64,000 nucleotides of DNA from Lama guanicoe (Eukaryota): the NCBI GenBank assembly GCA_013239625.1, contig MU053557.1, forward strand, positions 5,343,842-5,407,841. Reading direction: 5' to 3'. The position numbers were made by a program, and so were the translations under genes. The notes beneath the pieces are model-generated. The model worked only from the letters and a program-made list of their open reading frames with translations. It was not told the origin of the DNA and made no database searches. Positions 1 to 40,390 of the stretch are shown one piece after another (the first letter of the stretch is position 1; the number at the start of each line of letters is the position of its first letter).

Positions 1-45
1 GTGGCTGGCGGCAGCGCCCTCCCGTTAGCACGTTGTCTCTTGCAG

Positions 46-179
46 GCAATGGCAGTGCCCTGGTGAGGCTGCTCCAGGAGGGCGCCTGCAAGCTGGAGGA
101 GATCGGCTCCTACAGTGAGGAGGAGCTGCGGTGCCTGCTGAGGCAATGTGGCGTCCCTTTTGGGGCAGAAGACTCCAAG
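46..179 (+). CDS. HMGXB3: HMGXB3 internal coding exon (4th from last)
   Basis: ttgcag| acceptor, AAG|gtgagc donor; encodes GNGSALVRLLQEG...FGAEDSK; in phase with next exon. Confidence 0.9.
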
Positions 180-385
180 GTGAGCATCAGAGTGGCACTG
201 GAGTTAGGGACTTGGGGAGCAGGCTGGTGGGCCATTTTTCTGGGTAGGCCTATCAATATCTGTGCCAGGGTGCCTGTGCTGGGCAGAGAGTGCTAGTGGG
301 CAGGACGGCCTGGGAGATAGCAGCCTGGTCATGACCTGCAGGTGAGGCCATCCCTCCTGTCCAGTCAGTTCCTCTGCTGAAGGTG

Positions 386-490
386 GTGAGTCCAGACTCT
401 GGGTCCAGAATCCAGGCTCTCCCACCTACTGTGTGTGACCTTGGATAAGCTATGTCATATTTCTGAGCCTCATTTTCCTTGTTTATACAG
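386..490 (+). mobile_element. MIR SINE
   Basis: aatccaggctct...tgtgtgaccttggataag...tctgagcctcattttcctt core. Confidence 0.65.
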
Positions 491-909
491 TGTCTGATTA
501 TTACACATCCAGGCTCTTAGAAAATGAGTGCAGTTGCATCCAGAGAGAGAGAATGTGTTTTATGCATACATTATTTACTTCCCTTCATTCTGCTGTGCTC
601 TGAAAACTTTATGCTTCCTTCAGGTTCAGACTCAAACGTTAGCTCCTCTTTGAAGGTTTCCCTGCCTTGTGAAAAGTCGGGAGAACCCAGGCCTTAAGAG
701 TCCGACAGCTTGGTCAGGCTGGCTGGCTCTTTCTGTGACCTGGTCCTTTCAGGGCCTCTATCTCTACCTAGAGGATATTGGGCTGGTGTGGCTCCAAGGC
801 CCACTCTGGCCTTCACAGTTGATTGTCTTCCTTTGAGCGTTTGGTGGTGTGTACCAGGCCTCGTCCCTCAGCATTTACTGCTGTGTTTAATCTTGTCCTT
901 CTGCTCTAG

Positions 910-1026
910 GACCAGCTCTGCTTCTCCTTGTTGGCTCTCTATGAATCTGTACAGAATGGAGCCAGAGCTAGACAGCCCCCACCTCATCTCACAGGGGGTA
1001 AAATCTACAAGGTTTGCCCCCATCAG
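910..1026 (+). CDS. HMGXB3: HMGXB3 coding exon (3rd from last)
   Basis: ctctag| ... CAG|gtaaga; 117 nt, DQLCFSLLALYESVQNG...KIYKVCPHQ. Confidence 0.9.
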
Positions 1027-2164
1027 GTAAGAGGGTAATGAGGAGGAGCTCGGGGTGGACTTATTCATGTCGCTTTGCCCACACGCAGAGGATCTGATCT
1101 CGCTTGTTCTGGGAGTTGCACTTAGGTCAGTGGGCAGCTGTGGAGTAGCTCCTTATGGATTTTCTTCTGAGAGTGATGAGGGGCCCATTGGATGGTTTGA
1201 ATGGGAAGTGTCTGATTTTGGTTTTTTAGGCAGATCACTGCTTACATCTGTTGAATGCACAGTGTAGGAGCCAGGATAATTCTGGAAAGGGACAGAGTTG
1301 TCCTGACCTGGGGAGAGGCCAGGGTAGAAAAACCTCTGAACAAGTACTAAGCTGGGGAGATGGCTTCGCAGAGCCTTCAGTTCATGGAGGTGTGTGAGTG
1401 GGCAAGGCGACTGGCTGTCGAGAGTCAGGTGGTCAACCCCTTTACCAGAAGCTGAGTCTGAGGGTCATGCTTGATGCCTCTACCCTGGCAGGTCAGAGCG
1501 TGCTCTGAACATTGTGTTCATGTGACGGAAGTCCTGCTCATGCGAAGCACTTGACAACACAGGGACATGAGAGCTCTAGGACTTGGGGCTGTGCTGGGGT
1601 GGCAGTGTTACTTGGAGGCGACAGTCATGACTGGTAGATGTGGAGGAAGGTAGAGGCAGTTTTCCAGTGTCCACACAGCTACCCAGCATTTGAGTGGCGT
1701 TCTGTCAGTGGAGGTGTAGCCTACATCAGGGGTGCCCATGTGGACAGCACATCAGAGTCTGCTGGGGAGCTGCTTGGACTCCACCCCCAAAGCCTCATTC
1801 CTTAGATTTGGAATACCTCCATTTTTAACCTGATCTTAACTGCTGGTGCTGTGCACCTTGGGAACCACTGGGCTTAGATGGTGCAGGGTGGGGTTTGGAG
1901 CAGATTCCAGAGGTTGGGGAGCAGAGACTTTGAGACTCAGCTGAGGATTGGATGCTCCCAGCTCTTCTGGCTGGAGTGCAGAAATGAGCTGGCGACTTCG
2001 TTTAGTGAGAGAAGTAGGAGGGAAGCTGAATTCCATGGGCTCAGGTAGGATTGCCACAGCTTCAGTCATGAATCCTGCTTGTTCATCTTCGTAGTAACGA
2101 AGTAGTGAACTTAACTTTGAAGATTGGCTTCTCACTCTGTGCTGTGTGTACATCTCCCTGCCAG

Positions 2165-2374
2165 GTGGTCTGTGGCTCCAAGTATCTGGTGCGGGGCGAG
2201 AGTGCCCTCGACCACGTGGATCTGCTCGTCTCTTCCCGTCATTGGCCGCCTGTGTATGTGGTAGACATGGCCGCGCCAGTAGCCCTCTGTGCTGACCTCT
2301 GCTACCCAGAGCTGACCAACCAGATGTGGGGGAGGAATCAGGGCTGTTTCTCTAGCCCGACTGAGCCACCTGTG
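2165..2374 (+). CDS. HMGXB3: HMGXB3 penultimate coding exon
   Basis: ccag| ... GTG|gtgagt; 210 nt, VVCGSKYLVRGES...SSPTEPPV. Confidence 0.92.
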
Positions 2375-2387
2375 GTGAGTTCCTTTT

Positions 2388-5300
2388 GGAGGAAGAGAAG
2401 AGGGAGGAGAAGATATTTGAGGAGGGGATTTGATGAGAAATTTGAGGAGACAAAGAAAGGAGAGGAGATTGGAGGACTGGAGAGGAGATTTGAGATTTGA
2501 CTTGATTGGAGGGGAGAAGATTTGATGAGATTGGAGGGGATTGGAGGAGAGGAGAGGAGAGATTTCAGGAGTTTGGAGGAAAAGAGGAGAGGGGAGGAGA
2601 TTAGAAGACAGGACATTTGAGGAGACAATTGAAATTGAGAGGGGATTGGAGGAGGAGAGAGGAGATGAGAGGAACTGAAGGAGATTTCAGGGGAGAGGGG
2701 ATTTGAGGAAAAGANNNNNNNNNNNNNNNNNNNNNNNNNNNNNNNNNNNNNNNNNNNNNNNNNNNNNNNNNNNNNNNNNNNNNNNNNNNNNNNNNNNNNN
2801 NNNNNNNNNNNNNNNNNNNNNNNNNNNNNNNNNNNNNNNNNNNNNNNNNNNNNNNNNNNNNNNNNNNNNNNNNNNNNNNNNNNNNNNNNNNNNNNNNNNN
2901 NNNNNNNNNNNNNNNNNNNNNNNNNNNNNNNNNNNNNNNNNNNNNNNNNNNNNNNNNNNNNNNNNNNNNNNNNNNNNNNNNNNNNNNNNNNNNNNNNNNN
3001 NNNNNNNNNNNNNNAGACTGAGAGATTGGAGGGATTTGAGGAGAGGAGATTGGAGGAGAGGACGGGATTTCAAGAGGAGAGATTTCAGGAGAGGAGATTT
3101 GAGGAGTGAGTGGAGATTTGAGGGGCTTTGAGGAGAGGGGATTGGAGGAGAGGAGATTGAGAGAGGAGGTGAAAAGAGAGTAGAGGGGATTTAAGGAGAG
3201 AAGATGAGAGATTTAAGGAAAAGAGAGGATTTCAGGAGTGAGTGGAGATTTGAGGAAAAGAGACAGGAGATTGGAGGAGAAGGGATTTCAGGGGCTTTGA
3301 GGAGAGGAGATTGGAGGCGATTGGAGGAGAGGACGGGATTTGAGGAGAGGAGAGATTTCCGGAGAGGAGATTTGAGGGGTTTGAGGAGATTGGAGGAAAA
3401 GAGGAAAGGGGAGGAGATTTGAGGGGAGAGGAGATTTGCGGAAAAGAGGAGAGGGGAATTGAAGAGTGAGTGGAGGTTTGAGGAAAAGAGGATAGAATAG
3501 GAAATTGGAGGGGCTTTGAGGAGGAGATTGGAGATTTCAGGAGAGGAGATTTGATGGGTTTGAGGAGATTGGAGGAAAAGAGGAGAGGGGAGGAGATTAG
3601 ATGACAGGACATTTGAGGAGACAATTGAAATTGAGAGGGGATTGGAGGAGGGGAGAGGAGATTTGAGGATAAGAGGAGAGGGGAGAAGATTTGAAGTCAG
3701 CAGATTTGAGGAGACTTGATGGAAATTGAGGTGAGTGCAGATGTGATGAAAAGGATAGGAGAGAAGAGATTTGAGGGATTGGAGGAGATTTGAGGAAAAG
3801 AGGACAGGAAATTTCAGGAGATTAGAGGAGAGGGGCTTTGAGGAGAGGAGATTGGAGGAAATTTGAGAGACGAGATGATAGGAGATTAGAGGGGATTTGA
3901 AGGATAGGAGAGAAGAGATTTGAGGAGAGGGGATTGGAGGCGATTGGAGGAGAGGACGGGATGTGAGGAGAGATTAGAGGGGCTTTGAGGAGAGGAGTTT
4001 GGAGAGAGGAGAGGGGACTGGAGGAGATTTGATTGAAACTGAGGAGAGGGGATTGGAGGAGAGGAGACTGAGAGAGGAGATGAAAAGAGATTAGAGGGGA
4101 TTTAAGGAGAGAAGATAAGAGGAGACAGGAGAGGGGATTTGAAGACGAGATATGATTGAAACTGAGGAGAGGAGATTGAGAGAGGGGATTGGAGGGATTT
4201 GCGGAGAGGAGATTTCAGAGGGAGGAGGAGAGGAGATTGGAGGAGAGGACGGGATTTCAAGAGGAGAGATTTCAGGAGAGGAGATTTGAGGAGTGAGTGG
4301 AGATTTGAGGGGCTTTGAGGAGAGGGGATTGGAGGAGAGGAGATTGGAGGAAATTTGAGAGACGAGATGATAGGAGATTAGAGGGGATTTGAGAGAAGAT
4401 TTCAGAGGGAGGAGGAGAGAGGAGATGAGTGGAGATTTGAGGGGCTTTGAGGAGAGGGGATGTGAGGAGATTTGATTGAAACTGTGGAGAGGAGAGCAGA
4501 GGAGATTAGAGGGGTTTGGAGGAGAGGACGGGATTTGAGGTGAGGAGAGATTTCCAGAGAGGAGATTTGAATGGTTGGAGGAGATTTGAAGACAAGAGAT
4601 TTGAGGAGACTTGATGGAAATTGAGAGGGGATTGGAGGAGATTTGAGGAAAAGAGGAGAGGGGAATTGAGGAGCGAGTGGAGATTTGAAGAAAAGAGGAT
4701 AGAAGAGATTTGAGGAGCTTAGAGGAGAGGGGGTTTGAGGAGACTTGATTGAAACTGATGGGAGGGAATTGGAGGGGTTTGAGGAGATTGGAGGAGGGGA
4801 GATTTGAGGAGACTTGATGGAAATTTGAGAGGGGATTGGAGGAGATTTGAGGAAAAACGGACAGGAGGTTGGAGGAGAGGGGATTTGAGGGGCTTAAGGA
4901 GAGGAGATAGATATGATTGAAACTGAGGAGACGGGACTGGAGGAGAGAAGATGAGAAGAGATTGGAGGGGAATTGAGTGAGTGGAGATTTGAGGAAAAGA
5001 GGATAGAAGAGAAGAGAGTTGAGGAATTGGAGATTTGAGGAGATTGGAGAGAAGAAAGGGATTTGAGGAAATTTGATTGAAACTGAGGAGAGGGAATTGG
5101 AGAGGAGATTGGAGGAGAGGACGGGATTTGAGGAGAGGAGATTGGAGGAGATTTGAAGAGACTTGATGGAAATTGAGGGGATTGGAGGAGGGGAGAGGAG
5201 ATGAGAGGGAGTGGAGGAGATAGAACTTGAGTGAGTGGAGATTTGAGGAAAAGAGGACAGAAGATTTGAGGAGATTGGAGGAGAGGGGATTTGAGGGGCT

Positions 5301-7276
5301 TTGAGGAGATTTGAAGACAGGAGATTTGAGATTTGACTGAAACCGAGAAGAGGAGATTGGAGGAAATTTGAGAGAGGAGATGAGAGGAGATTGGAGGGGA
5401 TTTGAGGAGATTTGAAGACAGGAGATTTGAGATTTGACTGAAACCGAGAAGAGGAGATTGGAGGAAATTTGAGAGAGGAGATGAGAGGAGATTGGAGGGG
5501 ATTTGAGGAGAGAAGATTTCAGAGGGAGGAGGAGAGAGGAGACAGGAGAGGGGAGGAGATTTGGAGGAGCAAGTGGAGATTTGAGGAAAATAGGATAAGA
5601 GAGGAGATTTGATTGAAACTGAGGAGAGGGGATTGGAGGAGAGGACGGGATTAGAGGTGAGGAGAGATTTCCGGAGAGGAGATTTGAGGAGAGTAGAGGA
5701 TATTAGAGGAGATTGGAGGGGTTTGGAGGAGAGGACATGATTTCAAGAGGAGAGATTTCAGGAGAGGAGATTTGAGGAGTGAATGGAGATTTGAGGGGAT
5801 TGGAGGAGAGGAGATTGAGAGAGGAGATGAAAAGGGATTAGAGGGGATTTAACAGAAGGAGACAGGAGAGGAGAGATTTAAGGAAAAGAGGGGATTTCAG
5901 GAAAAGAGACAGGAGATTTGAGATTGGAGGAGAGGGTATTTCAGGGGCTTTGAGGAGAGGAGATTGGAAGAGAGAGGAGAGGGGATTTGAGGAGATATGA
6001 TTGAAACTGAGGAGAGGGGATTGGAGGGGTTTGAGGAGCAAGTGGAGATTTGAGGAAAAGAGGATAAAAGGAGATTTGAGGGGTTTTAGGAGATTGGAGA
6101 TTTGAAGACAGGAGATTTGAAGAGACTTGATGGAAATTGAGAGGAGATTGGAGGAAAAGAGAGGGAACGTGAGGAGTAAGTGGAGATTTGAGGAAAAGAG
6201 GATAGGAGAGAAGAGAGTTGAGGAATTGGAGATTGGAGAGAAGAAGGGGATTTGAGGAGATTTGATTGAAACTGAGGAGAGGGAATTGGAGGAGAGGAGA
6301 TTGGAGGTGATTGGAGGAGAGGACGGGATTTGAGGAGAGGAGATTGGAGGAGATTTGAAGAGACTTGATGGAAATTGAGGGGATTTGAGCTGGAGGAGAT
6401 GGAACTTAAGGAGTGAGTGGAGATTTGTGGAAAAGAGGACAGAAGATTTGAGGAGATTGGAGGAGAGGGGATTTGAGGAGAGTTGAAGACAGGAGATTTG
6501 AGATTTGATTGAAACCAAGGAGAGGAGATTGGAGGAAATTTGAGAGATGAGAGGAGATTGGAGGAGATTAGAGGGGATTTGAGGAGAGATGATTTCAGAG
6601 GGAGGAGGAGAGAGGAGATTGGAGGAGTGAGTGGAGATTTGAGGAAATTAGGAGAAGAGAAGAGATTTGAGATTTGATTGAAACTGAGGAGAGGAGATTG
6701 GAGGAAATTAGAGGGGAGATTTGAAGACAGGAGACTTGATGGAAATTGAGGGGGGATTGAAGGAGGAGAGGGAATTGAGTGAGTGGAGATTTGATTTGAG
6801 GAAAAGGACAGGAAGTTTGAGGAGATTGGAGGAGAGGGGATTTGAGGGGCTTTGAGGAGAGGGAATTTGAGATTTGATTGAAACTGAGGAGAGGGGATTT
6901 GAGGAGGAGATTTCAGAGGGAGGAGGAGAGAGGAGATAGGAAGAGACAGGAGAGGAGAGGAGATTGGAGGAGATTTGAGGAAGAGAGGCTAGAATAGGAG
7001 ATTTGAGGGGCTTTGAGGAGAGGAGATTGGAGAGGGGAGTTGAGGTTTGATTGAAACTGAGGAGAGGGAATTGGAGGAGAGGAGAGATTTCAGGAGAGGA
7101 GATTTGAGGAGACTTGATGGAAATTGAGAGGGGATTGGAGGAGGGGAGAGGAGATGAGAGGGATTGGAAATTTGAGGGGAGAGGGGATTTGAGGAGTGAG
7201 TGGAGATTTGAGGAAAAGAGGATAGGAGAGAAGAGATTTGAGGGATTGGAGATTTGAGGGGCTTTGAGGAGAGGAG
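2388..7276 (+). repeat. Purine-rich (GA/GGA) mosaic low-complexity tandem array in HMGXB3 last intron
   Basis: Built from recurring words GAGGAGA, GATTTGAGG, GATTGGAGG, TTGATTGAAACTGAGG, GAGTGAGTGGAGA, GACTTGATGGAAATTGAG; C is scarce. Confidence 0.95.
2715..3014. other. Assembly gap (300 N)
   Basis: Run of N inside the array. Confidence 0.99.
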
Positions 7277-7525
7277 CTCTTTCTGGAGTGGAAACCCGAA
7301 CCCAGCAGGCTTACCTTGGTCCATAGGGTTCCGGCACATGAGATTTTATTTGCTTTATGTATGTATGCTCTGTGGTGACAGCAAGTTTATACTTTATTGA
7401 TGCTTTATGCTGACAGGAAGGTTTAAACACCGCTGGCGTAGCCCATAGCCTTCACTCTCACCTACCACACAGCTCCTGTCTTAGCAGTTCCCTTGTGTCA
7501 CAGTGGCTTGTTACCTCCCTTCTAG

Positions 7526-7993
7526 AGCATGTCCTGCCCAGAACTCTCGGACCAGCATTATACCGTGGACATCACAGAGGCTGAACACTCTGTCCAGCAC
7601 CCAGTCACCAAGACTGCCACACGGCGCATTGTCCATGCAGGCACACAGCCCAGTCCTGGTGACCCCAGTGCTGGGCATCACTCCTTGGCCCTGTGTCCTG
7701 AGTTGGCACCCTATGCCACCATCTTGGCCTCCATTGCAGATAGCAGAACAAACAGCGTCCGCCGGCGGCCCATTGCCTTTGACAACGCGACCCACTATTA
7801 CCTCTACAACCGCCTCATGGACTTCCTCACCAGCCGTGAGATTGTCAACCGGCAGATCCACGACATTGTGCAGAGCTGCCAGCCTGGTGAGGTGGTCATC
7901 CGTGACACCCTCTACCGCCTTGGGGTTGCTCAGATCAAGACAGAGACGGAAGAGGATGGTGAGGAAGAGGAGGGGGCCACAGCCACAGAATAA
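7526..7993 (+). CDS. HMGXB3: HMGXB3 terminal coding exon
   Basis: ttctag| acceptor; SMSCPEL...FDNATHYYLYNRLMDFLTSRE...EEEGATATE*, recognisable HMGXB3 C-terminus. Confidence 0.93.
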   Translation, partial: SMSCPELSDQHYTVDITEAEHSVQHPVTKTATRRIVHAGTQPSPGDPSAGHHSLALCPELAPYATILASIADSRTNSVRRRPIAFDNATHYYLYNRLMDFLTSREIVNRQIHDIVQSCQPGEVVIRDTLYRLGVAQIKTETEEDGEEEEGATATE

Positions 7994-8860
7994 GCCAGGC
8001 TCTCGTACAGGAACCGCACCATCTCTCAAGCCATAGTGAGGCCCTTGCCCGAGTTAGATCTGTCTAGGGGACCGGCCTCTTACGCTGGGACTGACCAAAG
8101 AGCTTCCATTTCCTGAGCACTGTGGGGCCTGGGGTCCTTGGTCTCAACCTTCCGGGCGTCAGGAGAGGCACCGGGACACTCCTTACCCCGAGAGTGCACT
8201 TGAGGGGGCACCATACGTTCAGCAGAGGAGATTGGAGGAGAGGGGAGGCTGGGAGCTGCTGACTGCCTGGGGTGCAGTTGGGGTCGGGGTGGAGGTCCTG
8301 GGTGCACCAAGGTTGTGGAAGTTTCCCTTCCCACCCAGTTTCAAGCCCCTGTGGTCTCTTACCTTTGACTAAGGCAAGACTTGGGGGCTTTATTAGCCCA
8401 GGGGGGTCCCTTTGGGTTCTTGATTCTCCCAGAGGAGGATTGGATTTTCCTCCTGTTCCTCCTGCACCTACATCTGGGGGAAGTGGAGGTGGGAGAAACC
8501 GTGAGCTCAGGCTCTCTTCCAGGACTGTCCTCTCCGCCCTGAGCTTTGAGGAAGAGGATCCTCTCCTCCACTCCCTGGCCACTGCCGCCTACATCCTCTG
8601 GGCCCTGGACCCTCACCACAGAGGGGATGTGGCCCTTGAGTATGACATAACCTGGCGGCAGTAGGAGAAACTCCCTTCTGTGAAGGGGAAGCAGACTGGG
8701 CTGTAAGGAAACAGCGGGACTGGCTCAAGTGCCCAGGGTTTGCTTAGGGCACGGGAATTGGCCGTGTTATTTAATTTATTGAGAGGAGTGGAGTCGGTGG
8801 CTTTTTTCCCCTCCCTCTTCCCCCGACCAGAATAAAGTTTATTAAATTATCTGGTTGTGG
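7994..8860 (+). other. HMGXB3: HMGXB3 3' UTR (end approximate)
   Basis: Runs from stop codon to AATAAA at 8831, followed by a GT-rich tract. Confidence 0.7.
8831..8836 (+). terminator. HMGXB3 polyadenylation signal AATAAA
   Basis: Canonical hexamer; second ATTAAA at 8841-8846; downstream ggttgtggtg. Confidence 0.75.
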
Positions 8861-8979
8861 TGCAGCAAGAGTCAGTTCCATCCTTACTGAGTAGAGCTGT
8901 GTGCTGGGCCTCCTGTGGTCCTGGGACGGTCGGTCACAGGGAAGCCGCAGGCTCTCAGGTGGCACAAAAAACCAGAGGC

Positions 8980-9650
8980 CAGCTGAGTTAATGTGGTTAG
9001 TTTAATGCTGACAGACCTCCCACAGCGTGATTGTTAGTTATGATGAGTCTAAGTCAACGTGAGGGAGTGTGTGCTGCTTGCTTGGTGTGGCCAGCCACAT
9101 GGGTCCCCTGCCTTCCAGCTCAGAATGACAGGGGACCGGGCAGAACACCCCAAGCTTTTAGCTGCCACCTGGCTCATTGCAGTGGTACCAGACCCTGGGT
9201 GGGGCTGTGGAGAGAAGGGTAGAGGGCAGAGCGGGACAATTAGATTCTTACAAAGGAGGGTTTCTGCTCCAAGGCTGCTCCTGGGGACGTCATAGGCACA
9301 AAACCAGTCCTTTTCCATCGAGACAGGAGGGAAGTAGGGAAGGTTACTCCTGGAAGTGGGAACAGGTTAAGAGTGAGCTGGGTGTTACCCCAGTTGTCAT
9401 AGCAAACATGAGGCCACAGCATTGAGAACTGGGGGAAAGGGCGGGGCTCAGCCCCAGCCCCTGACTGGCAGTGATGGCTCAGGCCCTGGAAGTGGGATCC
9501 TCTCCCATCTCCCATGGATCCCGTGGCCCTGAGTTTCAGAACTGGGCTGAAATGATTAAGGGCAGAGTCTTTTTTCTCCACATGGTGCCCCATCCATGGA
9601 GGAGTTGAAGCTTGGAGGAGGGGAGAGGCAGTGCTTCCGTCGTCACCTCC
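8980..9650 (-). other. CSF1R: CSF1R 3' UTR (end approximate)
   Basis: Between TGA and ATTAAA; contains miR-34, miR-22 and miR-155 seed matches. Confidence 0.75.
9001..9006 (-). terminator. CSF1R polyadenylation signal ATTAAA
   Basis: Minus strand reads gtcagcATTAAActaac, about 645 nt after the stop codon. Confidence 0.7.
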
Positions 9651-28450: not shown

Positions 28451-28496
28451 GACACTAATTACTCTGCCAGGTCCTATTCTAAGCACTTCAAAAATA

Positions 28497-28498
<2 letters not shown>

Positions 28499-28544
<46 letters not shown>
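28499..28544. repeat. (TA)n microsatellite inside a MIR
   Basis: About 23 TA units with one CA interruption. Confidence 0.95.
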
Positions 28545-29464: not shown

Positions 29465-29624
29465 CTACCACCCGGAAGACCATGGAGGTTGAGCGGACAC
29501 CCTGGGAATTGATGGCCACGCAGGTGTAGTTGCCAGCATCTTGGAAGCCTACGTGATCAAGGCCGAGGGTCAGGACTTTTTGGTACCGGTTCTCATGGAA
29601 GTCAGATTGTTGAGAGATGGCGAG
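29465..29624 (-). CDS. CSF1R: CSF1R exon 6 (Ig D3)
   Basis: 160 nt; [20 protein letters not shown]...DAGNYTCVA...FRVV. Confidence 0.94.
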
Positions 29625-30288
29625 CTGCAGCCAGAAGGAATGGAAATGGTATACTGAGGTTCAGATCTGGGTTCAGATTCTCAGCCTTTAAGGATTACTA
29701 TCTGCCTTTCCTTGGATGAGGGACTGAACTGAACCTCAGCTTCATCTGCCAAGTGGGGCTGACAGCAGCCCCATGCTCCTAGGGCTGTAATGAAGAGTGA
29801 GACACAGCCTGCAAATGGCAGAGGGCCAGGCTGGGCGCACAGTAGGCACAGTGCAGAGGGGCGGTGTTCTTAGAAGCAGCCTCATGTCATTTCCTCCTGA
29901 GAAAACTCCCTCTTCCTTCCTCACTCCAGAGTTTTTCTGAAATGACCTTTATATCCCTGGGCTTCAAGGGTGGCCGAGGAACCCCCTGCTAACTCAGAAG
30001 TGAGCTGACACGTGGCTCTCGTCTATGGCTGGGGCAAAGGTCATGGGTCAATGGGGTGGAATACTGTCCCCTCCCCACAAGATTCAGTGGCATGAGTCCG
30101 AGTCCTTTTTCTGAATCAGCTACTGACTGGCAGTGAGATACTGGGTGTGTCCACTCCTCACCCTGAGCCTTAGCTGTGCCTTCAGCCCAGAGAGCCAGCT
30201 TGAGGCGAGGCCAGGGGCTCTACCCTGCAGGGCCGGGCATGCGGGGGTGAGGGGCCGACTGCATCCTGCTGTCTCCCCAAGGACTGAC

Positions 30289-38061: not shown

Positions 38062-40390
38062 CATAAATACCAACCAAAATTGACTCAAGAAACAAACTAA
38101 CTAGACCTATAACTAGCAAAGAGATTGAATCAATAATCAAAAGCTTCCCAAAAAAGAAAAGCCCAGGACCAAAGAGTTTCACTGGTGAATTCTCCCAGAT
38201 ATTTAAAGAATTAGCCCCAATCCTTCTCAAACTCATTCAAAAAATAGAAGATGAGGGAACATTTCTAAATTCATTCTATGAGGCCAGCATTATCTTGATA
38301 CCAACGGACAGACAAGAACATCACAAGAAAACTACAGACCAGTATCCTTTATGAACATAGACGCAAATGTATTCAATAAAATATTAGCAAACCCAACCCA
38401 ACAGTATATTAAAGTGATTATACACCATGACCAAGTGGGATTTACCCCAGAAATGCAAAGATGGTTCAACACATGAAAAATCAATCTAGTACACCACATC
38501 AGCAGAACAACAAAAATCCCACATGATCATCTTAATTGATGCAGAAAAAACCCTTTGACAAAGTCTAACATACTTTCATGATAAAACATGCAAAAGACTA
38601 GGAATAAGAAGGAACATTCTTGGGGGGAGGTTATAGCTCAAGTGGTAGAGCACATGCTTAGCATGCGTGCATGAGGTCCTGGATTCAATCCCCAGTACCT
38701 CTTTCTAAGAATAACTAAATAAATAAACCTACTTAAAAAAAAAAGGACATCTTCAACATGATCAAGGACATACATAAAAAAGCTCACAGCTAGCTCAATG
38801 ATAAAAGACTAAAAGCTTCCTCTTCCCACCTCCACCCTTAGATCAGTAATAAGGCAAGGATGCCTGCTCTCACCCATTATATTCAACATGGTACTGGAGG
38901 TTCTAGTCAGGGCAATCATGAAGAAAAAGAAATAAAAAGCATCCAAATTAAAAAGTCAAACTATTCTCTCTTCACAGATGACATAATCCTATATACAGAA
39001 AAATCCTAAAGAATCTATAAAACAAAACAAAAAAACCAATTAAAACCCCCAAATCTATTAGAGCTAATAAATGTATCCAGCAAAGGTACAGGATGTAAGA
39101 TCAACACACAAAGCTCAAGCTTATTTCTATACACTAGCAGTGAACAAGGAAATTAAAAAAACAAGGAAAAAGGAAATTAAAAAAATAATTTTATTTGCAA
39201 TGGCATCAAAATGAATCCAAGACATATACACTGAAAACCACAGCACATCGCTGAAAGAAATTAAGAAGACTCAACAAGTGGAAAGACATTTCTTTTCATA
39301 GATTGGAAGATTTATTATAAAAAAGGCAAAACTCCCCAAAGTGATCTATAGATTTAATACAGTACCTATCAAAACCCCAATAGCCTTCACTGCGGAAATG
39401 GAAAAGCTGATTCTCAAGATCATATGGAATTTCAAGAGATGCCCAATAACCAAATCAATCCTGAAAAAGAGCAAAATCGGGGTTACACTTCCTAATTTCA
39501 AAACTTACTACAAAGCTACAGAAATCGACCACAGCATGGTGTTGGCGTAAGCACAGATACATACATCAACAGAATAAACTTGAGACTGCAGAAATAAACC
39601 TTCATATCTAAGGTCAATTGACTTTCAACAAGGGAGTCAAAGCCATTCAATGGGGAAAAAGCAGTCTTTTCGACAACTGGTGTTAAGAGAACTGGATACC
39701 CGCATACAGAAGAATGAAGTTGGACCCTTACTTCACACCATACAAAAATTAAGTCAAAATGGATCAAAGATCTAAATATCAAGGCTAAAACTATAAGATG
39801 CATAGAAGAAAGCATAGGGGTAAATATTCATGACCACAACTTGGAAATGGTCTCATAGCTGTGTCACCGAAAGCACGAGCAACCAAAGGGAAAAAAAAGT
39901 AAATTGGACTTTATCAAAATTAAACATTTTGGTGCAAAGAACACTATCAAGAGAATAAAGACAGCACACAGAATGCAAGAAAATATTTGCAAACCATATA
40001 TACGAGAGTTAAGTATCTAGACTATATATACACATATCCTATAATTCAACAGAGACAAATACTCAATTTAAGAGTGAGTAAAAAAATGGAATAGGTATTT
40101 CTCCAAAAGAGACATACAAATGATCAACAAGCACATGAAAAGATGCTCAACATCATTAGTCATCAGGCAAAGGCGAATCAAAACTACAATGAGATACTGC
40201 CTCACACCAACTAGGTTAGCCATAATAAATAACCCAGAAAATACTAAGTGTCAGCAATGATGTGGAAAAATTGGAACCCTTGTACATTGCTGGTGAGAAG
40301 GTAAAATGATGCCGCTGCTGTGGTAATCAGTTTGATAGTTCTTCAAAAAGTTAAACACAGAATTACCCCGTGACCCAGTAATTCTCCTCC
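38062..40390 (+). mobile_element. Decayed LINE-1 ORF2 fragment (RT to C-terminal region)
   Basis: Typical L1 motifs aaagcccaggacca...ttcactggtgaattct, catgaccaagtgggattta, ttcacagatgaca; ORF remnant [13 protein letters not shown]; many stops. Confidence 0.9.
38622..38744 (+). mobile_element. tRNA-derived SINE, Vic-1-like, nested in L1
   Basis: ggggggaggttatagctcaagtggtagagcacatgcttagcatg...ggattcaatccccagtacctc, A-rich tail, degenerate TSD aaggaacattctt/aaggacatctt. Confidence 0.85.

Follow-up and report, generated by a model that had tools for sequence, protein, structure and literature searches.

A mosaic purine-rich repeat in the last HMGXB3 intron of Lama guanicoe bears a signature of long-range copying

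The last intron of HMGXB3 in Lama guanicoe is filled almost completely by GA-rich, low-complexity DNA, and the locus raises the question of what kind of repeat this is, how it was built and whether it serves any purpose. We analyzed it within a window of 64,000 nucleotides (contig MU053557.1 of assembly GCA_013239625.1, positions 5,343,842 to 5,407,841 of the forward strand), to which all positions below refer. The array is real; it belongs to a known general class of mosaic repeats and shows an unusual signature of long-range copying. We favor, at slightly better than even confidence, an account in which a non-coding mosaic repeat, confined to one locus, expanded within the last HMGXB3 intron of camelids and persists there as a tolerated passenger.

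The intron extends from 2375 to 7525 on the plus strand, with GT..AG boundaries and in phase 0, between the penultimate coding exon (2165–2374, plus strand, 70 codons, ending in GTG at the donor GTGAGT) and the last coding exon (7526–7993, plus strand, 155 codons and a stop). An earlier note on this DNA had taken it to be the last intron of HMGXB3, and this assignment holds: the splice signals are present, the spliced junction (PTEPPV joined to SMSCPE) agrees with the homologue motif PTEPPV-SVSCPEL in 91 of 120 HMGXB3 proteins, the motif search being blank in the remaining 29, and the last-exon protein is HMG-box-containing protein 3 of mammals, with 86–94% identity among the best 120 of 495 matches. 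The array occupies 2388–7276 on the plus strand and leaves 13 nt of intron upstream and 249 nt downstream, as had been described. Both edges are sharp, and the downstream remainder (7277–7525, plus strand) is a unique intron remnant with a pyrimidine-rich acceptor. The array consists of 2018 G, 1562 A, 878 T, 131 C and 300 N; it is 78% purine and G-rich on the sense strand, with a GC skew of +0.84 to +0.91. The 300 N form a single run inside the array, which the earlier note did not mention. The proposal that an array of about 4.9 kb fills the intron is thus correct as to position, while both 4.9 kb for the array and 5,151 nt for the intron are nominal and not measured lengths. Unless stated otherwise, array statistics were computed on the N-free part of 4,262 bases. 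The text of the array has a core register of GAGGA, GATTT, GATTG and GAGGG together with rarer landmark words. Seven of the reusable words from which it had been said to be composed are indeed concentrated there, with 56, 52, 7, 7, 6, 5 and 12 copies compared to 1, 1, 0, 0, 0, 0 and 0 in the remaining 59 kb of the window (both strands), and the other HMGXB3 introns within the window lack array words.

A separate exact copy of an array word, 22 nt long, lies in the HMGXB3 3′ untranslated region (UTR) at 8225–8246 on the plus strand, about 950 bp past the array. No match longer than 18 nt arose in any of 120 Markov controls, and this word may have been copied from the array or may be left over from the sequence that seeded it. 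At 9612, a 17-nt match to an array word falls in the range that the controls also reach.

The array had also been described as having no fixed period. This is true of a single tandem unit: Tandem Repeats Finder (TRF) returns many short overlapping rows, the longest of about 420 bp at 66% match, and no single unit spans the array. Order is nevertheless present on two other scales. Autocorrelation peaks at 10, 15 and 5 nt (0.49, 0.45 and 0.45, compared to a mean of 0.35), and the four core pentamers tile 57% of the array, compared to 33% in 200 dinucleotide controls. On the larger scale, 25 anchors (820 nt) form a collinear chain at an offset of 1.0–1.25 kb. Its score of 0.261 exceeds those of all 200 block shuffles, in which the best values over all bands were 0.184 and 0.226 in two sets of 100. 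Taken together, the autocorrelation, the pentamer tiling and the chain indicate a pentamer–decamer ground text overlaid by a decayed higher-order repeat of about 1.1–1.2 kb. The best-kept piece of this repeat lies at 4975–5432 (plus strand), collinear with 6174–6599 at an offset of about 1,199, and the two segments differ by 49 substitutions in 420 columns and by seven gaps. The longest exact repeat is a block of 122 bp at 3038–3159 (plus strand) that recurs unchanged at 4225–4346, an offset of 1,187. A segment of the 5′ block at 2567–2666 (plus strand) is 97% identical to 3563–3662, and a single clear young tandem duplication, with a period of 101 bp and 97% match, lies at 5281–5511 (plus strand).

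The spacing of the repeats bears on how the array was built. Exact maximal repeats of at least 25 bp exceed chance: they number 126 and cover 65% of the N-free bases, compared to 8% in order-5 Markov controls; order-9 controls match the cover (64%) but contain no repeat longer than 66 bp, compared to 122 bp in the array (20 controls per order). The two copies are adjacent in only one of the 126 repeats. None has copies less than 100 bp apart, where 5.8 would be expected, and 21 have copies 1.0–1.2 kb apart, compared to 8.8 expected. Apart from this excess, the source distances resemble a uniform draw, and 15 of the 48 repeats of at least 30 bp fall on the higher-order diagonal bands, 29% being the chance expectation. 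Across the 15 best internal alignments, substitution averages about 10%, with 44 indel events per 262 substitutions. In a toy model of tandem-only growth, the proportion of repeats less than 200 bp apart never fell below 9.6% in 32 runs, and 3.8–4.9 of the top 11 repeats were tandem pairs. When copying was allowed from any place sharing a 5-nt word, the corresponding means were 6–10% and 0.2–1.1 tandem pairs (29 of 32 runs scored). The real array, with 4% and one tandem pair, is closer to this non-local model. A second simulation, starting from four copies of 1.15 kb, pointed the same way, with much noise and poor discrimination. The rarity of adjacent copies makes plain slippage a poor fit and long-range copying within the array a better one. 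Of the two processes named in the earlier note, repeated slippage or template switching, it is therefore the latter, together with conversion, that agrees better with the spacing.

The exact 122-bp block at a distance of 1,187 bp, lying among copies that have diverged by about 10%, forms a patchwork of young and old tracts such as conversion gives. From the repeat spacing and the toy models we infer that tracts were copied out of register, by gene conversion or template switching, as has been proposed for the minisatellite MSY1, an example of conversion-driven turnover in the available text of PMC2599865. The sequence pattern shows a degenerate 5/10-nt ground text in which GAGGA alternates with GATTT or GATTG and point changes created the landmark words. 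It also shows the decayed diagonal left by at least one duplication of about 1.1–1.2 kb. Most of the later shuffling would be out-of-register copying of tracts of 20–120 bp between distant sites in the array, presumably guided by shared core words and occurring by gene conversion or template switching between sister chromatids, with small indels in addition. A putative driver is transcription of the G-rich, nearly C-free sense strand, which could favor R-loops and breaks and thereby repair. The G skew and the weak folding of the RNA (see below) make such a trigger plausible.

Is the array present in animals, and at what copy number? In 14 of 24 listed public runs, from seven studies and with three organism labels, 0.60–0.64 of 410 sampled array words were found, and the array is accordingly no invention of the assembly, even if one of the 14 may be the source of the window itself and the run list is biased to the best holders. 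The analysis left aside runs X15, X16, X18, X19 and X20 (shares of 0.05–0.15) and X22–X24 (zero share). An identical array fragmented at k = 31 would retain 0.43 of its 31-mers in unitigs of at least 150 nt and 0.63 in those of at least 100 nt, and a divergence of 1.5% would likewise give a share of 0.63; the Logan paper, in the portion available, describes graph simplification and a 150-bp rule that is worded in two ways. The observed share lies within the range expected from fragmentation of an identical array and hence gives no evidence of hypervariability. The suggestion that the repeat is hypervariable is so far unsupported, the share being narrow across three organism labels, although a word share is blind to changes of order or length. 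Contig depths were compared for four runs (X1, X7, X17 and X21) against 7190–7525, a stretch that takes in the 3′ end of the array and the unique remnant. In the DNA runs X1 and X7, the depths of the listed contigs are low and flat, spanning about fourfold (11.8–52.2 and 6.3–21.9, respectively), with summed peaks of 736 over 33 records and 222 over 24. This range matches the highest 31-mer copy number in the window, which is 4, and fits one locus and not a high-copy satellite, in line with the failure of the earlier note to recognize a named satellite. The unique remnant has no contigs in X1, X7 and X21 and the junction of array and flank is unbridged there; a filter removes records, and these gaps carry no weight. 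The readable part of the window lacks three short word-junction probes taken from loose ends of X7 and X17, which could lie under the N run; they suggest word-sized differences between animals or species and some rearrangement. Among the listed holders of array words no RNA run is on record, which is evidence neither way. The protein of the last exon gave 587 pattern matches in metagenome contigs, none of them confirmed as the orthologous locus, and a 21-nt landmark word had no match in viral or metagenome contigs. The array is also absent from the literature searched on HMGXB3 and camelid repeats, a search thin in subscription papers, and is apparently undescribed, as the earlier note had supposed.

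One related observation comes from run X21 (organism F), which has a single array-type contig of 546 nt at 7198–7243, compared to the 33 and 24 records of X1 and X7. A 16-nt probe from its loose end has a single match in the window, at 2671 within the 5′ block, and the main-part word share of this run is 0.00. A much shorter allele in a related camelid is possible, although blanks of this type prove nothing.

The array probably has no function and is a harmless passenger. It contains decoy splice sites, 11 GTGAGT and 17 TTTCAG, none of the latter after a pyrimidine run, and neither the true donor nor the pyrimidine-rich acceptor is disrupted. Splicing would survive through these intact sites, the decoy AG sites lacking a polypyrimidine tract. 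The words GGAGA and GAGGA reach about 54 per kb in the array, compared to about 2 elsewhere in the window, forming dense purine words on the sense strand. By analogy with the mouse, SAFB-type proteins might mask these purine enhancers: in the available text of PMC10901741, Safb1 binds intronic GA-rich repeats in Cp, Tmx3, Vps13b and Uggt2, and its depletion activates nearby cryptic sites. The array RNA folds weakly, at –32 to –46 kcal per 500 nt compared to –150 to –189 in three flank controls, and the array has no inverted self-matches. Rfam gave no family match in 1–9500. No canonical G-quadruplex (four G3 runs with loops of 1–7 nt) occurs in the array; G4Hunter reaches 1.2 in 16% of array windows, compared to 5% elsewhere. 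We rejected a coding role: the antisense frames, the longest of 475 codons, reflect base composition, match no Pfam family and have no protein match at E 1e-5 among 8,000 candidates of 261–832 residues.

Several points weigh against long-range copying in a passive intron. The copying mechanism is read from one assembled allele with an internal N run, and a short-read assembler that collapses adjacent copies or re-orders modules could mimic non-local copying. The repeats are not independent of one another, which makes the binomial expectations rough. In the second simulation the short-distance fraction of the non-local runs varied from 0.02 to 1.0, lengths drifted and 2 of 60 runs were unscored. 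A passive intron also leaves unexplained a very high array depth in run X17, to which we return below. An alternative reading is that the array is real but that its length and module order are in part a product of assembly, the true allele being more regularly tandem. We consider this unlikely. It would agree with the 300 N within the array, with the break-up of the array at k = 31 into some 100 unitigs (105 if the flanks are included), with a word share of at most 0.64 in every run and with the lack of any listed contig that spans 7190–7525. However, the share is explicable by fragmentation alone, the assembly has retained the 101-bp tandem duplication, and distant copies diverged by about 10% on a coherent 1.2-kb diagonal are not what random path-walking would be expected to produce. 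It is also conceivable, if quite improbable, that the array is an old GA-rich tract common to distant mammals that turns over in each lineage, so that the camelid version is no new expansion. To judge by their substitution of about 10%, the internal copies are of real age; the 3′ UTR contains a matching word, and organisms D and F also carry array vocabulary. There is, however, no positive evidence for such a tract: the other HMGXB3 introns in the window are free of the words, and all strong holders are contig sets of 2.0–2.1 Gb, albeit in a search confined to near-identical DNA. The small ancestral intron that, in the earlier note, expanded in this lineage is at this stage a conjecture, as is a restriction of the array to camelids.

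The depths in X17 (organism D) bear on two further readings. Contigs of array words in this run have depths of 790 and 5,940, and the summed depth exceeds 30,000 at 7250–7273, while a contig on the unique remnant (7330–7447, 115 of 118 positions alike) has a depth of 3.3. The type "RNA" for this run is a guess, its contigs come without strand or ends, and contig depth cannot rank the parts of a gene. High copy number in organism D could account for such extremes if the array derived from the insertion of part of a dispersed camelid satellite or retroelement. The sharp boundaries would suit an insertion, and 6 of the 20 alpaca satellite loci have no consensus to compare. We nevertheless regard an insertion as very improbable given the low, flat contig depth in X1 and X7 and the absence of a direct repeat of at least 6 nt across the array ends and of AATAAA or ATTAAA inside the array. 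In addition, neither of the two commonest array words occurs, in either orientation, within the initial 400 nt of any of the 14 alpaca monomers. Nothing points to retrotransposition in particular, as the array has neither the end repeat nor the polyA signal and its longest antisense frame has no Pfam or protein match. The other reading is that the array gives rise to an abundant GA-rich RNA without structure, either a stable intron product or a transcript of its own, to which SR, TRA2 or SAFB proteins bind multivalently; such RNA may form a nuclear body or tune the output of HMGXB3. Plain pre-mRNA would give the array only a few times the depth of its flank, and X1 and X7 show nothing similar to X17. 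The density of GGAGA and GAGGA fits this reading, as do reports, in the accessible portions of two papers, that TRA2 proteins bind GA-multivalent RNA and retain such mRNAs in speckles, shown there for coding regions (PMC12629991), and that repeat-bearing long non-coding RNAs are common in human cells (PMC11294396). On the other hand, the signal comes from one run and could equally be produced by amplification bias, by an enrichment library or by an array that in organism D is much larger or dispersed; no Rfam family was found. Contig depth is no measure of expression, and the X17 signal is therefore treated as a lead only, an abundant array RNA being improbable at present. The boldest form of the idea, a camelid-specific self-copied array that yields RNA hundreds-fold above its host intron, acts as a sponge for SR, TRA2 and SAFB proteins and differs greatly in size between camelid species (being short in organism F), is a long shot.

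Among known systems, the favored passenger array most resembles complex minisatellites or variable number tandem repeats such as MSY1, with which it shares a probable single locus, a size of a few kb, interspersed variant words and a structure best explained by conversion or strand-annealing repair, as far as the available part of PMC2599865 describes them. Its size fits the minisatellite range of 0.5 to several kb; a depth that fits one locus was seen in two DNA runs. Compared to the definition in the part of PMC12771815 available, the array has no head-to-tail unit of 6–100 bp, its word lengths vary and its copies are mostly distant. It works, then, like a conversion-driven complex minisatellite and yet fails the tandem-unit test. 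The Safb1-bound GA-rich repeats of the mouse are likewise intronic, purine-rich on the sense strand and composed of enhancer-like words near potential cryptic splice sites, a likeness drawn from their description in the available text of PMC10901741 and not from the mouse repeat sequence. Their A-biased GAAGAA motif differs from the GAGGA and GATTK words of the array, where GAAGA occurs at 8.7 per kb and GAGGA at 54. The pyrimidine-rich element of PKD1 intron 21, described in the accessible part of PMC11667243 as 2.5 kb long with 23 perfect mirror repeats, is another multi-kb, strand-biased, low-complexity intronic tract with non-B DNA potential. The strand bias of the array is opposite relative to the gene, and it is only 78% purine. 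Its longest purine run is 26 nt and it has 10 short purine mirror repeats with arms of 10–14 nt, which implies weak triplex potential; the array is not an H-DNA tract of the PKD1 type. Immunoglobulin switch regions are intronic, several kb of degenerate pentamer repeat, G-rich on the transcribed strand and prone to R-loops. Unlike them, the array is not at an antibody locus, is built on another pentamer and has almost no C, and we therefore propose no role in class switching. The alpaca satellites VpaSat01–20 and SAC-SAT are also tandem DNA of camelids, in part found solely in South American species, with monomers of 1.8–8.5 kb in large, mostly pericentromeric arrays according to the available portion of PMC13751797. 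The HMGXB3 array is about 5 kb, lies in a gene and shares no common word with the monomer parts compared. The high copy number of such satellites is not seen in X1 and X7; X17, whose "RNA" type is a guess, is the exception.

As a passenger, the array offers a clean natural record of a low-complexity array rewritten by long-range copying and not by slippage. The locus is poorly described by short-read assemblies and tandem-repeat finders, and could be useful as a marker in camelids. Long-read assemblies exist for several interfertile camelid species, which makes the copying mechanism directly testable. Should the depth in X17 represent real RNA, a young intronic repeat would be becoming an abundant nuclear RNA able to affect splicing factors, and if the sponge were true, a repeat RNA would have been caught at birth inside a conserved gene.

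The sequence around the array yielded several minor observations. Directly after the array-bearing intron, the last exon (7526–7560) begins SMSCPELSDQHY, where most of the best 120 homologues have SVSCPELLDQHY, a difference of two changes. Downstream of HMGXB3, CSF1R and then the 3′ part of PDGFRB lie on the minus strand. HMGXB3 and CSF1R stand tail to tail, with a plus-strand AATAAA at 8831 and a minus-strand ATTAAA at 9001–9006, about 170 bp apart. Set against alpaca CSF1R, the CSF1R exons of the window show one difference in 972 compared residues; against the dromedary, Bactrian and wild camel proteins the differences are 6 of 958, 7 of 953 and 9 of 1,014, respectively. These figures place the window in a South American camelid. 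The sole difference from the alpaca RefSeq protein is Q for R at position 271, in the exon at 29466–29627 (minus strand). An open frame at 38067–38351 is presumably a fragment of LINE-1 ORF2, and an (AT)25 microsatellite lies in a CSF1R intron at 28494–28544.

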